A DNA stretch of 21,008 nucleotides from Candidatus Thorarchaeota archaeon (GCA_020348985.1 CP070761.1:1252639-1273646); one strand, 5' to 3'. Shown: positions 13,978 to 21,006, counted from the first letter of the stretch. The notes: generated by a model from the letters alone, not told the origin. Translations and numbers: made by a program.

Positions 13978-15318
13978 ATGAAGCTCAGAGATGTTGTTGC
14001 TGGTGCTAACGCCTCAATGTATCACCGACTTGACTTCCAGAAGATCCGGGGAGTCTACTATCCGCGCTCAGAAGCAGAAGTTGTAGAAGCCATCGAGCAA
14101 GCCAGAGCAAAGGGTTACGAGATTACGCCCAAGGGCGGAGGCTCGGGTCTAAGCGGAGCGTGTACTGGAGGAAACCGTGATCGTTTCATAGTCAGCACAC
14201 TTCAAATGAAAGAACTCCTCACAATCTCGAAAGACCAAGGTTACGTCGATGTTCAGCCTGGAGCTACTCCGGATGAGATAAACGAGGTTCTCGAACCAAT
14301 GGGAATGAAGCTCTATGTATCTCCAAGCTCTAGGGACATTGCTACTTTGGGAGGGCTGCTCGCAACAGACGGTGGCGGTAACGACACGTGGGCTAATGGA
14401 ACAATGCGTGACAACACTGTGCGAGTTAAGATGGTCCTTTATGATGGCAGACGTCTGATAGTTGACTGGGAAGGAGTCAGAAGTGATGACGCAGAACTCG
14501 CACTCGAGCTCAACAAGAAAGACATGACAATCCACGACGTCGCCAGCGCACATGGAACGCTAGGATTCGTGACTGAGCTCAGGGTCACAATCAGACCTCT
14601 TGTTGAGGAACACCTGATGGGAGCCATTGCTGTATACGAGGACTTCGATGCGTTAGGGTCCGCGCTTGATAGGATGATCAAATCTGAGACCCCTATCAGA
14701 TACGGAGAAGCGATTGTAGAAGCTCACAAGGACGTGAGAGATGATCTGACACCGCCAATCCTTATTCTCGAGTTTCCTGAAAAGGAGAAGGCAAGCATAG
14801 CCGAGACAACTGACTTTGAAGAGGTTGATTCTGGGGAGCTGGAACGCCTGAAGGACATCAGGATAAAGCTCCCGAAACGAAATCCCAATGAAGGCGTTCA
14901 AGCGGCGCTCTTTGAGGGTTATGGATTCTTTGAGGACAGCTTGAGAGGTATGCAATCGAGGATGGAAGCTATCAATGGTCTTCTCATAGAGGATGGATTC
15001 GAACCCTTCGCGAAATATGGCCACGGTCCGAGTAAGTGGTATCTCGGCGATAATACGCCAGCATTTGGATTGATTATGCACTCGCGAGAAATCAGGCCGA
15101 CGGACAAGACTGGAAAGGAGTTGTTCGAGACTGTTCTGAAGATTGTGGATCTGTGCGATGACATGGGAATAACGCCGAAACCAGAGCACAAGTGGCCTTT
15201 CAGCGACAAGGCGAAGAAGACGCGTATTGAAGAACTTAGGACAATAATCGGAGAAGGATTCAATGCGTTCATCTTCGAGCCAGAGTGCGCTTCCGAGACT
15301 CTTTCCTCAATGGTCTGA
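13978..15318 (+). CDS. FAD-binding oxidoreductase, GlcD / D-lactate dehydrogenase (FAD_binding_4) family, with divergent C-terminus
   Basis: YPRSEAEV..., PKGGGSGLSGAC, VQPG, ATLGGLLATDGGG, HGTLGFVTE, and C-terminal PEHK (family consensus GEHG). Abuts the Fe-S subunit gene. Confidence 0.85.
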   Translation: MKLRDVVAGANASMYHRLDFQKIRGVYYPRSEAEVVEAIEQARAKGYEITPKGGGSGLSGACTGGNRDRFIVSTLQMKELLTISKDQGYVDVQPGATPDEINEVLEPMGMKLYVSPSSRDIATLGGLLATDGGGNDTWANGTMRDNTVRVKMVLYDGRRLIVDWEGVRSDDAELALELNKKDMTIHDVASAHGTLGFVTELRVTIRPLVEEHLMGAIAVYEDFDALGSALDRMIKSETPIRYGEAIVEAHKDVRDDLTPPILILEFPEKEKASIAETTDFEEVDSGELERLKDIRIKLPKRNPNEGVQAALFEGYGFFEDSLRGMQSRMEAINGLLIEDGFEPFAKYGHGPSKWYLGDNTPAFGLIMHSREIRPTDKTGKELFETVLKIVDLCDDMGITPKPEHKWPFSDKAKKTRIEELRTIIGEGFNAFIFEPECASETLSSMV

Positions 15319-15383
15319 AAGGACCGAATACTTTCGGCCATCTCCGAGGGGTGCTTAAAAGGACCTCTAGACACCAACCTTTG

Positions 15384-16523
15384 ATGAGAATGGTAAGACC
15401 CAGCCGCAGCCCCAGGGGCCTCTTTGACCCCTATTATGTGCCATCGAAACTTCTGCATCGCGATAGAGAGCTGGATACGATAAACGGCGTGTATCGCGAC
15501 TCCTACGAGGACAATTACGGCATCAACTGTCTCGTCCATGGGATATCCGGCGTCGGACGGACTGTCTTCTCACGATACTTTCTCACCAAGATAGTCCCGG
15601 AGAATTTCGACGCCAGGACCGTATATGTGGATGCAAGGAGCAAAGGCTACGCTGAGATTGTGACAGAACTCAACGACAAGATTGCGGGGATGTCCGAGGC
15701 TGTTACTGTTGCCTTTGACCTTGACCAGTTGTGGATTCAGTTCAAGAGAACAGCAGCATCTTCTCCAAAGAGGACCGTCTTTGTGATTGACAACATCGAC
15801 GACACGAACGAGGAGGTCTACGCCAAGCTCGCAAGACTGTCTAAGGAAATCAACGCAAGCACAATTGGAATACTCAACAGCCATGACTACAGGTTCCTGA
15901 CCAAGGTTCCCGCAACCTCCATGGCGTATGACTTCGAGTTACCACTAGATACCTACACTCAGGCACAGCTATACGAGATCATAAGGATGCGAGTTGAAGA
16001 CACGTTTCCCCTCGGCCTGACCGAGGAAGTGCTTCGTTATATCACCGATATTGTGTGCGAGTTCGACGCATCTAAGCCGAAGACCTCAATCGAGGCTTTG
16101 AAGGTCCTTTGGCCACTCGCCCAAAGGGGCCAAGAGATTGACTCGGACTCGGTAAGAGCAGCAACTTCAAGGATAACAACGTTTGGACACGACCAGGACT
16201 ATATGGACATCATTGATACTATCAGCATGAATGACTTCATGACATTGCTTGTTCTGGAAGCGATGACTGAACATCTGATGCGCTACAAGACAGAGACCTA
16301 CATTGACAGGCAGACTCTGAGTGAACTTGTTATGATCAAATGCGAGGAACTTGATGTCAAATACTCTGACAACGACATTGAGAGAAGTCTGCAGACTCTG
16401 ATTTTCCAGAGCGTGGTGTTTGAATCAGGATACTCTCGAAGTCTACTCTATACTCTAGTGCCGCCTGAGATACTCCATGATACAGCCCTCAGCCTTAGGA
16501 GAGAACTAGTAAGAAGGAAGTAG
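15384..16523 (+). CDS. Cdc6/Orc1-family AAA+ paralogue with degenerate ATPase motifs
   Basis: FDPYYVPSKLLHRDRELDTI N-terminus, GISGVGRT, VFVIDNID, YTQAQLYEIIRMR and a C-terminal winged-helix-like region. TATA-like CTTAAAAG about 30 nt before ATG 15384; ATG 15390 is an alternative start. Confidence 0.85.
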   Translation: MRMVRPSRSPRGLFDPYYVPSKLLHRDRELDTINGVYRDSYEDNYGINCLVHGISGVGRTVFSRYFLTKIVPENFDARTVYVDARSKGYAEIVTELNDKIAGMSEAVTVAFDLDQLWIQFKRTAASSPKRTVFVIDNIDDTNEEVYAKLARLSKEINASTIGILNSHDYRFLTKVPATSMAYDFELPLDTYTQAQLYEIIRMRVEDTFPLGLTEEVLRYITDIVCEFDASKPKTSIEALKVLWPLAQRGQEIDSDSVRAATSRITTFGHDQDYMDIIDTISMNDFMTLLVLEAMTEHLMRYKTETYIDRQTLSELVMIKCEELDVKYSDNDIERSLQTLIFQSVVFESGYSRSLLYTLVPPEILHDTALSLRRELVRRK

Positions 16524-16577: not shown

Positions 16578-17345
16578 ATGGGAGCTGCTGAATTCAACAG
16601 GAAGCTGTACGAAGAACGACTGGAAGAAGACCCACCAGACTACCAGTTTGAGTTCTTCCGGGTCAAGCGATTGATGATGCTATCAATGATAGACAATGAA
16701 CCGGAGAAGATCCTCGAACTCGGTTGCGCAGGGGGCTGGCTTGGAGAGAAATTGAAGAGGAAGTTCAAAGCCGAGGTTCACGGAGTCGACATTTCTCCAA
16801 ATGCATTGAGATTGGCAGAGAATAGAGGGCTCATTGCAAAGGAGTTCGATCTCGATGGCAACAGATGGCCGTATGAAGACAATACGTTTGACGTTGTCAT
16901 CGCAGGTGACCTTCTCGAACATTTGTTTGACACGGAAACTGTAGTTGCGGAAGCCTACAGAGTCCTGAGGCAGGGAGGGCTCTTTATTGTCTCTGCGCCA
17001 AACATCAACTGTTACTACAATAGGCTGTGGGTACTCTTCGGTAAACTGCCCTATTGGATTGAGAGCGCTCCGAATCTCGTATTCGTGCCCCTGGCAAAGG
17101 ACTTCGGAGACACGTTCTTCAATCCCGGTCATATCAGAGTCTTCAACAAGGAGTCACTCACGAAGCTGCTTGAGCATTTCGAATTCGAAGTCGAACTGAT
17201 CAGAGGTGTGCCTCTGGGGTTCACAGAAGAGGAGACCCCGAAACGATTCAGATTCCTCCGCCGGATGGCACAGGGAGTTGAGAACTACTTCTCGCGGATA
17301 CCCACTCTCTCTTCACTAATCCTTGCAAAGGCTGTAAAAAGGTAG
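16578..17345 (+). CDS. Class I SAM-dependent methyltransferase (Methyltransf_11/23-like)
   Basis: ILELGCAGG motif I, GVDIS, FDVV...LEHL, RVLRQGG and HIRVFN. Confidence 0.92.
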   Translation: MGAAEFNRKLYEERLEEDPPDYQFEFFRVKRLMMLSMIDNEPEKILELGCAGGWLGEKLKRKFKAEVHGVDISPNALRLAENRGLIAKEFDLDGNRWPYEDNTFDVVIAGDLLEHLFDTETVVAEAYRVLRQGGLFIVSAPNINCYYNRLWVLFGKLPYWIESAPNLVFVPLAKDFGDTFFNPGHIRVFNKESLTKLLEHFEFEVELIRGVPLGFTEEETPKRFRFLRRMAQGVENYFSRIPTLSSLILAKAVKR

Positions 17346-18309: not shown

Positions 18310-19080
18310 ATGAAAGATTCGAGACCTCTGTTGAGACCAGGCTTCAGGACTGCGGACGAGGTCATTCGCCAGACCGCCAAGACCGGAACTCCCGAGCTAG
18401 ATGACCTACTTGGAGGCGGTCTGGAGTCAGGAATGACCCATCTTTTCTACGGCGACCGAGGTCTCCATGGCGACCTGCTCAAGACAGCGGTGCACTTCCA
18501 GCGCCCAAAGGAGGAAGGGGGGCTGCTCAGTCCAGCAATAGTTATCGACAGTGCGAATATGATTAAGATTGAGCAGATAAGCGACTACTCAGATGAGTTT
18601 GGGCTCGAGCCTGAGGAGGTCATGGACCAGATCTACATCTCGCGTGCCTTCAACTCTTCGCAGACATATGACCTAGTGATGAACCAGCTAGACAGCTTCT
18701 TCGACAAGATACCTGCCAGGATGTTGATAGTCTCAGGCCTGCCCGACTTGTATATGTCAGAGGGAGTGACCAGCGATGGACTGCAGGAACTCACTCACAT
18801 GGCCACGAGACTAATGACCTTCACTTTGAAGAGAGGCGTCTTCACATTGGTCTCTGCACCACGTTCTGAGAAGAGTCCCAAGCATCCAGCTGGGGGGAAG
18901 GCTCTCGCAAGTTGTGCACAGATACATGTCTTTGTGGAGGAGTCCAAGTCCTACTTCAAGTACACTTTGGCGAAACACCCTCAATATCCGGTGAGACGCT
19001 CTTCACGGGTGAAACCGGTGAGGTTCGGAACAACTCTTCCACTCTCTCACTTCCTCGGCAGGGAGGAGAAAGAGGAGTAG
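18310..19080 (+). CDS. RadA/Rad51-like paralogue lacking Walker A/B (inactive RecA fold)
   Basis: TGTPELDDLLGGGLESG.THLFYG, MDQIYISRAFNSSQ and PAGGKAL match the RadA core. The P-loop reads GDRGLHGD and Walker B reads LIVSG. No N-terminal HhH domain. Confidence 0.85.
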   Translation: MKDSRPLLRPGFRTADEVIRQTAKTGTPELDDLLGGGLESGMTHLFYGDRGLHGDLLKTAVHFQRPKEEGGLLSPAIVIDSANMIKIEQISDYSDEFGLEPEEVMDQIYISRAFNSSQTYDLVMNQLDSFFDKIPARMLIVSGLPDLYMSEGVTSDGLQELTHMATRLMTFTLKRGVFTLVSAPRSEKSPKHPAGGKALASCAQIHVFVEESKSYFKYTLAKHPQYPVRRSSRVKPVRFGTTLPLSHFLGREEKEE

Positions 19081-19092
19081 CAGGCCGCCACT

Positions 19093-21006
19093 CTATTCTC
19101 TATCTCCCAAGCTCTTCACGAGCTCTTCTACAAGATCACGAGGTAGCTCTCTGGCCTGTTCCATGATCGTCTCAATCTCGTGTGCGGGAACACCGCGACC
19201 TTCGAGGTCTTTTCTCAGCTCCTCGAGCTCGAACTGGCTCAATTTGTCTGAGGGAGTTGCTGCCTCTTCGAAGTCTCGGATTATCTCATCCGAGATGTCC
19301 TCTTCAGGTGGTCGCTCCACTTCTTCTTCTTCGGGCAGAAGAATGACTCTTTCCTCAACGGGGATAACTTCCAGACCAGTTATGTCTATGATCTCTTCGC
19401 CAGCCACGCGTCGAGAAGCCTCAGCTTGAATCTCCTCTAGAACCTCCTCGACGGTCTTGCCATCCCGTCGAGCCGCTCGAATGGCCTCCTGATTGATGAC
19501 TTCTTTCACGAATGCAGCTTGTTCGCTCGGGCGCATCTTGGATATGTCGGCCTTGAACTCATCTAGTTCCTCAGGACTCAGATGAGTGAGGATTGATAGC
19601 TGTATCAGAAGGTCACCAATTTCTGGAACCTCTACAGGAACTGACTCTTCCGGCATCTGTGCTGCGACTCTTGTGACTTCAATCTCAAGTCCCTGATACG
19701 TATCGTTGAACAGCTCTGCGAGGAGTTCTTGTCTAGTCTTTGCTTCAGTGATGGGTTTGGGCACTCTTCCCTTTCGGAGGGCACTAATCTGACCATTGAT
19801 CTGCCTGAGCCTCTTCGGTATGCTAAAGTAACGAGTCCAAGAAACTATCAGGATTATAGCAATAAAGAGCGCAGGAGTCCCAAATGAGATTATGTTTCCA
19901 GTGAGTGTCTGCTGTTCAGTTGGATATATGTTGATTCTTAGTTCCAGTACTTGGGTTTCATAGTCTGATCGCTCTATGATCAAGTCAACTCGAACTACCT
20001 CTTGGTCAAGTCCAACGGGAATTAGTGGCGCCGCAACAAGTATTTTGATTTTATATACGCCGGCCTCTTCTGTTGGTCCTATCTCAAGAATCTGGACGAT
20101 GACTTCTTCACGCTCGTAGCTTAAGTTCGCACCAGTAATGGGATTGCCGCGTGTCGTTATCCAATCCTCTGTGTATCTGACATAAACATCCAGCACTTGA
20201 CCGTAGGTAATGTTCATCTCACCATTGATTACATAGCTGGTTCTAAATTCGAAATTCGTTGGCCTTTCGATTATAGTCACTAGAATCGAAAGATCCGATT
20301 GAGTTTCGTGATTAAGTAGTGAGAACTCTGCTCGAAGTGTGAAGGGCGCCTGAGGTAGAGCTCTAGGATCGTTTCCGTATATCTCGAAGAGCCATCCCGC
20401 TGTAGAATCAAATACGAAGGAGTACGTACCATTGCCTAGGTCCAGAATCTCAAACTCTGTGCTGGTTGAGATGCCACCCCCGTATATTGACGTCTCTAGA
20501 GTGGCACCAGACAACCCTCCGACATAACCGCTGGTCAAATCAGCATTGATGGTTGGATCGACGCCGTAATAGAACAGGATTGAGATTGTGTCACCAAATG
20601 GCACAATCAGTTCGTCTATTTCATTATCAACCTGGTTTGCGGCGGGAGTAATCAGCTGAAGCTCCGTTGCGACTTCGTCAACCTTCAACGAGATGCCACC
20701 ACTGCTAACCTCGTAATTGTCCTTGTCAAAGAAGATCGTCACAGGATGTCGTAGTCCTGGCGTCAAGTACGCCGTGTCTACCATGACGACGTAAGTGCCA
20801 TTTCCAAGATCTATGGCGGGTCCAGAGAAATTACCCCAATTGAAAGTTGCAGAGGCATTCGACACACCTTCATTGAAGTACGTGTCATTGTACGTGAAAC
20901 TGATGTTTCCTGCCCATCCCCAATATACTGTCTCTGCTATTGGACTTACGACTTCGGTTCTAATCTTGGTAATAGTAATCGTCAAGGTCACTACATCTTG
21001 TGCAAG
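19093..21006 (-). CDS. Large single-pass membrane/surface protein, 5'-truncated by the window edge
   Basis: The frame stays open past the track start to the edge (..LAQDVVTLT). Beta-rich repeats with DLGNGTY twice and many NxS/T sequons, a TM segment (FGTPALFIAIILIVSW) and an acidic cytoplasmic tail of about 245 aa. Confidence 0.88.
   Translation of the reverse strand, partial: LAQDVVTLTITITKIRTEVVSPIAETVYWGWAGNISFTYNDTYFNEGVSNASATFNWGNFSGPAIDLGNGTYVVMVDTAYLTPGLRHPVTIFFDKDNYEVSSGGISLKVDEVATELQLITPAANQVDNEIDELIVPFGDTISILFYYGVDPTINADLTSGYVGGLSGATLETSIYGGGISTSTEFEILDLGNGTYSFVFDSTAGWLFEIYGNDPRALPQAPFTLRAEFSLLNHETQSDLSILVTIIERPTNFEFRTSYVINGEMNITYGQVLDVYVRYTEDWITTRGNPITGANLSYEREEVIVQILEIGPTEEAGVYKIKILVAAPLIPVGLDQEVVRVDLIIERSDYETQVLELRINIYPTEQQTLTGNIISFGTPALFIAIILIVSWTRYFSIPKRLRQINGQISALRKGRVPKPITEAKTRQELLAELFNDTYQGLEIEVTRVAAQMPEESVPVEVPEIGDLLIQLSILTHLSPEELDEFKADISKMRPSEQAAFVKEVINQEAIRAARRDGKTVEEVLEEIQAEASRRVAGEEIIDITGLEVIPVEERVILLPEEEEVERPPEEDISDEIIRDFEEAATPSDKLSQFELEELRKDLEGRGVPAHEIETIMEQARELPRDLVEELVKSLGDRE

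Follow-up and report, generated by a model that had tools for sequence, protein, structure and literature searches.

A conserved Asgard Orc1/Cdc6 paralogue predicted to be ATPase-dead, with a promoter box resembling the DNA-damage element of Sulfolobales Orc1-2

What could an archaeon do with a member of the Orc1/Cdc6 initiator family that lacks the residues for ATP hydrolysis, when canonical members are encoded in the same genome? The question is raised by a gene in a 21,008-nt stretch of a Candidatus Thorarchaeota archaeon genome (GCA_020348985.1, CP070761.1:1252639-1273646), here called the window, which covers 1.253-1.274 Mb of a single 3.16-Mb contig. An earlier note on this stretch, made from the sequence alone, described the gene as a full-length Orc1/Cdc6 paralogue with every ATPase motif substituted and suggested a likeness to ORC2, ORC3 or ORC5 of the eukaryotic origin recognition complex (ORC). 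The eukaryotic ORC is composed of catalytic and non-catalytic AAA+ subunits, ORC2, ORC3 and ORC5 being non-catalytic or weakly catalytic, and how this division originated is an open question. The clade to which the gene belongs speaks to it: in Asgard archaea an Orc1/Cdc6 lineage without catalytic activity has been stably retained next to the active ones, under selection as strong as that on core metabolic enzymes. The protein, here called the dead paralogue, probably serves as a regulator without enzymatic activity rather than as an initiator. Its promoter carries a box that ties it to the Orc1-2 regulator of Sulfolobales and suggests an operator conserved across archaeal phyla.

An Orc1/Cdc6 paralogue with degenerate catalytic motifs

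The open reading frame (ORF) 15384-16523 on the plus strand is uninterrupted and encodes 379 amino acids. An in-frame ATG at 15390 is an equally possible start, and a longer version beginning with GTG at 15285 overlaps the upstream gene and lies 5′ of the TATA box. Pfam recognised only the generic AAA_22 and AAA_16 domains, and the NCBIfam orc1/cdc6 model TIGR02928 gave 73.6 bits over model positions 6-326 of 366, not reaching its cut-off of 181.3. Among the archaeal Cdc6/Orc1 proteins that phmmer returned from the PDB was Orc1-1 of S. solfataricus (2qby_A, E 6e-12). The AlphaFold2 model, built from a 46-sequence alignment (mean predicted local confidence, pLDDT, 89.3; predicted template-modelling score, pTM, 0.86), shows an AAA+ base, a lid and a winged helix, and its top Foldseek match was Cdc6 of P. 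aerophilum (1fnn_A, TM score 0.76), followed by other archaeal Orc1/Cdc6 structures.

To judge from sequence and predicted structure, the dead paralogue clearly descends from the archaeal Orc1/Cdc6 family. It shares with the family (TIGR02928; 1fnn, 2qby_A and 2v1u, the ORC1 of A. pernix) the arrangement of AAA+ base, lid and C-terminal winged helix, full-length homology, the N-terminal LFDPxYVPxxLLxR motif, the P-loop glycines, the Walker B Asp and the sensor-1 Asn. Its placement in this family, proposed from the sequence, is thus borne out by homology and fold alike, and both rule out a non-initiator AAA+ family such as STAND or TniB-like proteins.

Residues were paired by the HMMER alignment to 2qby_A, in which the dead paralogue reads GISGVGRT for GLTGTGKT, VIDNID for VLDEID, P-ATSMAY for PRVKSSL and SKPKTSIEAL for GDARRALDLL. 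Unlike archaeal Orc1/Cdc6 proteins it therefore lacks the Walker A Lys, the Walker B Glu, the arginine finger and the sensor-2 Arg. Because the alignment pairs the motifs, all the substitutions that had been listed (Walker A Lys to Arg, Walker B Glu to Asn, loss of the box VII arginine finger and of the sensor-2 GDAR) are real. The statement that every ATPase motif is substituted goes too far, as the Walker A Thr60, the Walker B Asp136 and the sensor-1 Asn165 are kept and are invariant in 20 orthologues.

Two canonical Orc1/Cdc6 genes were found elsewhere in the genome with TIGR02928, at ~15 kb (416 bits) and ~55 kb (290 bits). The one at 15 kb, orc1-1, encodes GKTGTGKT, VLDEVD and GDARRALDLL.

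Conservation and selection

Orthologues of the dead paralogue form 112 clusters at 90% identity; they are 62-94% identical to it and ~378 amino acids long, and the closest are annotated as Candidatus Thorarchaeota. Of 85 genomes in its family, 73 carry the gene as a single copy. Mean column identity across 20 aligned orthologues was 79%. The Walker A Lys position is taken by R in 5 of them, M in 14 and S in one, and the Walker B Asp-Asn, the ASKPK stretch and the MAYDFE box are conserved.

The dN/dS ratio (Nei-Gojobori, 33 unsaturated pairs) was 0.035. Among the neighbouring genes the ratio was 0.030 in malic enzyme and 0.118 in a membrane protein, with three others at 0.063-0.068. This strong purifying selection agrees with the earlier view of a maintained non-catalytic paralogue in an Asgard host, here of the Thorarchaeota, and shows none of the relaxation that decay would bring.

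A clade of hydrolysis-dead proteins in Asgard archaea

An exhaustive search of 1.84 billion representatives recovered a sister group 45% identical to the dead paralogue and many full-length relatives at 20-31% identity. Most of these wider relatives keep GxxGxGK[TS], or variants of it with the final Thr/Ser replaced. In none of them is there a Walker B Glu (the motif reads DD, DN, DS or NN), a sensor-2 Arg or an arginine finger, and where canonical proteins have GDAR they carry xRPxT or xVPG, in which the proline is invariant.

In a tree of 157 sequences (IQ-TREE quick search, LG+C20 PMSF), 55 such "dead" sequences were split from the canonical Orc1-1-type and Orc1-2-type proteins with an SH-aLRT support of 100. 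Common descent of the clade is also supported, independently of the tree, by shared promoters and neighbours. The named members come from Thorarchaeota, Lokiarchaeia/Promethearchaeota, Baldrarchaeota, Ranarchaeia and Asgardarchaeia, and from one bin labelled Bathyarchaeota. A profile of the Thorarchaeota orthologues had matches below 1e-10 in 227 of 400 Asgard genomes, distributed over 10 of ~33 families (denoted by codes such as f2 and f14, not mapped to class names); the canonical copies of the present genome fell short of this threshold. The dead paralogue is accompanied by two or three canonical Orc1/Cdc6 genes; of 11 genomes checked, 10 had such genes, and in the remaining one, a 220-contig assembly, none was detected. 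Conversely, only canonical-type proteins were found with a wide profile in five genomes from the four largest families without matches.

Several Asgard lineages thus appear, from these sequence comparisons, to hold a well-separated clade of hydrolysis-dead Orc1/Cdc6-like proteins. We did not find a description of it in the literature searched, and a 2025 survey of the Asgard replisome leaves the expansions of Cdc6 copies unexplained (PMC12680538).

DNA-contact residues and origins

The winged-helix domain has lost the basic residues of the wing and of the recognition helix. Its wing reads FESGYSRSLLY, versus SKGRYGRTKK in the Orc1-1 of the same genome, and the last 95 residues carry a net charge of -3 versus +3. 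The acidic C-terminus without a basic wing, noticed at first reading, is therefore genuine, and the loss of basic residues extends to the whole clade, where the wing lacks GRxGRT-type arginines and the recognition helix lacks the canonical RR(V)S signature. The region of the initiator-specific motif (ISM) is acidic as well. The isoelectric point of the dead paralogue is 5.09, and the clade median is 5.6 compared with 8.2 for canonical proteins. In S. islandicus Orc1-2, specific binding requires the ISM and two wing arginines, and a mutant without ATP hydrolysis is locked in the on state and lethal, except when its DNA binding is abolished as well (PMC9738581). A protein that is hydrolysis-dead and stripped of the canonical DNA contacts fits a role exerted through protein contacts.

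The genomic position is also unlike that of an initiator gene. The orc1-1 gene adjoins the gene for the PolD small subunit and a set of origin recognition boxes (ORBs): the ORB core TCCAGTGGAA occurs twice, together with the variant TTCCATTGGAAA, directly 5′ of orc1-1 (L001:1373-1413; genome 15151-15191), and a third copy lies at genome position 18896. The start of orc1-1 is probably the TTG at L001:1444 rather than that of the longest ORF. The dead paralogue lies 1.2 Mb from the other orc genes. No copy of the ORB core was found near it, and the one match with a single mismatch in the window, inside gcvH, is at chance level. The gene is separated from its neighbours by 65 nt on the 5′ side and 54 nt on the 3′ side, and the cumulative GC skew, weak and multiphasic, gave no origin call near the gene. 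As had been supposed, neither an ORB nor an origin stands beside it.

A promoter box shared with orc1-2

The gene has a TATA-like box of its own, as first noted, 24-29 nt before the ATG; this spacing implies a leaderless or short-leader mRNA. A 12-nt box, GAATACTTTCGG, is located 17 nt upstream of this TATA-like box (~12-17 nt across the Thorarchaeota orthologues). This box was present in all 78 Thorarchaeota loci (52 distinct sequences), whatever gene lies upstream, with a conservation of at least 80%, and the consensus of the orthologous promoters reads aGAATACTTTCGGtcAtgtCtct.aGGtG.TTatata.

To our knowledge, Orc1-2 of Sulfolobales is the only characterised archaeal DNA-damage regulator. 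Its DNA-damage-responsive element (DDRE) in S. islandicus, AATAGTTTCRGWDTACTCWS, with an ANTTTC core, was derived from 21 promoters that depend on Orc1-2; the protein footprints this element, and induction requires it (PMC6061795). The Thorarchaeota box matches the DDRE core AATAGTTTCRG at 10 of the first 11 positions, the lone mismatch falling on the N of ANTTTC, and some Thorarchaeota promoters read AATAGTTTCGG there. Positions 12-20 match weakly (~5 of 9, with 3.5 expected), so we claim likeness to the core only.

The exact 12-mer is unique in the genome, and its 10-mer core has five copies. One of them lies ~83-92 nt upstream of the start of orc1-2. In this genome and in all 22 Thorarchaeota loci examined, A[AT]TACTTTCGG, or in a few loci a one-base variant, was found upstream of orc1-2, in the 22 loci at about -93. 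Beyond Thorarchaeota, versions of the box precede the dead paralogue in family f2 (AATACTTTCGGA), f16 (AATACTTTCGGT, ATTAGTTTCGGT) and f14 (AATACTTTCAGT), and a degenerate one in Baldrarchaeota (GATAGTTTCAAT). Twelve Loki-type promoters carry it in degenerate form as TTTTACTTttAaTgACCtCTCT...GGGGTTTAAATA, within the same layout of box, CTCT, GGGG and TATA as in Thorarchaeota. The box was absent from all six canonical Orc1-1 promoters inspected, and no consistent box was seen in the promoter of the RadB-like neighbour of the dead paralogue.

Two further observations concern the surroundings of these boxes. The region upstream of orc1-2 (L132:2780-3010, genome ~56.07-56.29 kb, minus strand) holds a 99-nt tRNA gene, which probably contains an intron, and after it an element of ~95 nt that is conserved in 22 Thorarchaeota genomes and ends directly at the DDRE-like box. 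This element has C/D-box-like GUGAUGA and GAUGAU sequences and a GGCGAG/CTCGCC terminal stem, with no match in Rfam. Elsewhere, a gene for a Cys-rich protein of 112 amino acids (MSAKLIAYCGLDCAECP...; genome 2896335-2896727, minus strand) is preceded by TACTTTCGG, 13 nt, TTTTATAG, ~25 nt and the ATG. Since this layout equals that of the dead-paralogue promoter, the gene may, on its sequence, be a further member of the same small regulon.

Possible function of the dead paralogue

The best reading of these data, which we hold with moderate confidence, is that the dead paralogue modulates an Orc1-2-type circuit, or acts as its effector, without being a catalyst. It retains the fold of an initiator, is predicted to have lost ATP hydrolysis (in Thorarchaeota also the Walker A Lys), and lacks the arginine finger and the basic winged-helix residues by which canonical Orc1/Cdc6 proteins read ORB DNA. 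Transcription is inferred to be controlled through the DDRE-like box, whose core is common to the Thorarchaeota orc1-2 promoter; with such control through an Orc1-2 operator, an Orc1-2-type circuit serving stress or the cell cycle would have the protein as one of its outputs. Judged by its promoter, the protein is more likely a regulated effector of that response than a constitutive ORC subunit. Speculatively, the protein would be an adaptor or decoy without an ATP switch, which acts through protein-protein contacts and modulates replication initiation or chromosome handling but would not bind origins. Candidate partners might be MCM, a canonical Orc1, or the SMC and Roadblock/Rag-GTPase modules that adjoin the gene in other Asgard lineages.

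The dead paralogue resembles Sulfolobales Orc1-2 in being a non-initiator member of the Orc1/Cdc6 family (PMC6061795, PMC9738581), and its promoter box matches the core that this protein footprints. However, Sulfolobales Orc1-2 is an active ATPase for which both the ATP switch and DNA binding are essential. Lacking both sets of residues, the dead paralogue looks like a target or partner of an Orc1-2-type regulator and not like its equivalent. With low confidence, the idea can be carried further: the dead clade could have been conserved as the output arm of an ancient Orc1-2/DDRE checkpoint circuit, older than the divergence of Thermoproteota and Asgard archaea, induced by damage or cell-cycle signals and providing a switch-less block or redirection of helicase loading or of SMC-dependent chromosome handling. 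If true, prokaryotes would offer a precedent both for non-catalytic subunits of the ORC family and for replication checkpoints.

Several points weigh against an effector of an Orc1-2-type circuit. No large regulon was found: the strict box has ~4 intergenic copies genome-wide, roughly the chance expectation, and it is present at none of the five genes for transcription factor B (TFB), the nearest sequence there being GGAATTTCGA at -80 of the gene at 2999520-3000485. The distance from box to TATA is 17 nt at the dead paralogue versus ~55 nt to the proximal TATA at orc1-2. Binding of the box by an Asgard Orc1-2 would be an extrapolation from Sulfolobales, the transcriptional control is read from sequence, and the partners are proposed candidates only. 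The invariant P-loop glycines, Thr60, Asp136 and Asn165 would be compatible with a nucleotide or another ligand still being bound. The monophyly of the dead clade relies on a quick IQ-TREE search and the clade sits on a long branch, so long-branch attraction may have contributed to it. Finally, the neighbours differ between lineages, so they give no single functional pointer.

The neighbours are at the same time the basis of another explanation, that the protein works together with SMC and Roadblock/Rag-type GTPase modules as an adaptor in chromosome organisation or signalling. The initiator fold would then have been put to new use as a platform, for example in SMC loading or its regulation. 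Of 13 Loki-type genomes sampled, 12 have the dead paralogue immediately 5′ of smc and in the same orientation, and in 7 of those 12 a gene for a Gtr1/RagA-like GTPase is on its other side. In Baldrarchaeota and in families f14, f16 and f17 the divergent neighbour is a Roadblock/LC7 gene, and Endo_dU genes lie nearby in Baldrarchaeota and f14. In Thorarchaeota, however, the gene adjoins neither: in the present genome smc is ~56 kb away and Roadblock genes occur only as short paralogues elsewhere. As neighbourhood alone is weak evidence, we consider this explanation unlikely.

Somewhat less probable again is a structural, non-catalytic subunit of a heteromeric ORC-like complex with Orc1-1 and/or Orc1-2, analogous to ORC2, ORC3 and ORC5. 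In concept the dead paralogue is like these subunits, as an initiator-fold AAA+ protein kept without catalysis beside active paralogues; it co-occurs with the latter in nearly every genome checked, the surfaces of its AAA+ core and winged helix are highly conserved, and eukaryotic ORC1, ORC4 and Cdc6 follow the archaeal proteins in the Foldseek search. However, none of ORC2, ORC3 and ORC5 is among the Foldseek matches listed. Family profiles searched against PDB sequences preferred archaeal Orc1-1 (5e-26), followed by human Cdc6 (8e-15), ORC1 (2e-11), ORC5 (2e-6) and ORC4 (1e-3), with no match to ORC2 or ORC3. The likeness to ORC2/3/5 that the earlier note suggested is thus not upheld, since both kinds of search place archaeal Orc1/Cdc6 first and then Cdc6, ORC1 and ORC4, and neither a specific affinity in sequence or structure nor evidence for a heteromer was found. 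Moreover, the protein has no arginine finger to act on the ATP site of a neighbour, its gene is near neither an origin nor the other orc genes, the Orc1/Cdc6-like matches examined in five sampled genomes of four other large Asgard families were all of canonical type, and a promoter of the damage-element type suggests conditional and not stoichiometric expression. A complex prediction of the dead paralogue with the Orc1-1 of the genome, each entered as an alignment, scored 0.00; run without controls, this says nothing either way.

It is improbable that the dead paralogue is itself a nucleotide-independent, autoregulating transcription factor that binds the box. The box does stand at the gene's own promoter across many lineages, and Sulfolobus Orc1-2 shows that Orc1-type proteins can act as transcription factors (PMC6061795, PMC9738581). 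Yet the basic residues of wing and recognition helix are lost clade-wide, the ISM region and the whole protein are acidic, and specific binding by S. islandicus Orc1-2 requires the ISM and the wing arginines (PMC9738581). A decaying pseudogene or relic of a duplicated initiator, for which the joint loss of several catalytic motifs might speak, can be dismissed almost with certainty, as it is refuted by a frame intact in all genomes, the low dN/dS, the identity among orthologues and the conserved promoter.

Features and gene neighbourhood

Coordinates of the features of the dead paralogue in the window, and of its Roadblock/LC7 neighbours at loci of other lineages
Feature	Position	Strand	Remarks
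Conserved promoter box GAATACTTTCGG, DDRE-like, contains ANTTTC core	15326..15337	+	0.04 expected by chance in window
TATA-like TTAAAA	15355..15360	+	24-29 nt before ATG; orthologues have TTTATATA or TTTAAATA at the same place
Coding sequence of the Orc1/Cdc6 paralogue, predicted ATPase-dead	15384..16523	+	379 aa; alternative start 15390
Degenerate Walker A GISGVGRT	15540..15563	+	Lys to Arg; Met or Ser in orthologues
Degenerate Walker B VIDNID	15783..15800	+	DE to DN; invariant in Thorarchaeota orthologues
Box VII region PATSMAY	15909..15929	+	without arginine finger
Sensor-2 region SKPKTSIEAL	16071..16100	+	instead of GDARRALDLL; Pro232 is a clade hallmark
Winged-helix domain without basic wing or basic recognition helix	16230..16520	+	FESGYSRSLLY at 16419-16451
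Roadblock/LC7 neighbours of the dead paralogue	L094:7264-7848, L163:5256-5957, L162:5001-5678, L164:4941-6023		

In at least 50 Thorarchaeota loci the genes follow the order malic enzyme, (M28 peptidase), CCG/Fe-S protein, FAD-binding dehydrogenase and dead paralogue, with gcvH (on the opposite strand), a RadB-like gene and a membrane protein on the 3′ side. This looks like inherited synteny and not like an operon. In the window, a class I S-adenosylmethionine-dependent methyltransferase gene (16578-17345, plus strand) stands between the dead paralogue and gcvH; it was found at this position in none of 54 other Thorarchaeota loci and is therefore a lineage-specific insertion.

The RadB-like gene (18310-19080, plus strand; RadA/RadB family, Pfam Rad51) encodes a paralogue with HLFYGxRxLHDD in place of Walker A, a substitution conserved in 37 Thorarchaeota orthologues, with a dN/dS of 0.068. 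At a distance of ~1.8 kb and in fixed synteny, the dead paralogue thus has beside it a second conserved pseudo-ATPase from a DNA-transaction family. The gene at 19093-20991 (minus strand) encodes a protein of 632 amino acids that belongs to no Pfam family; its N-terminal part is beta-rich, its C-terminal tail is highly acidic, and it has a single transmembrane helix. The gene keeps its synteny in Thorarchaeota but is fast-evolving (median dN 0.60, dN/dS 0.118).

The Loki-type loci (L166-L178, e.g. L166:2067-7802) come from several genera, and 12 of the 13 genomes show the conserved order nitrilase-like, Gtr1/RagA-like GTPase, dead Orc1/Cdc6 and SMC. In the Roadblock/LC7 neighbours of the other lineages, a proline-rich linker is found together with a short C-terminal motif that is conserved as EALKALG or EALRALG.

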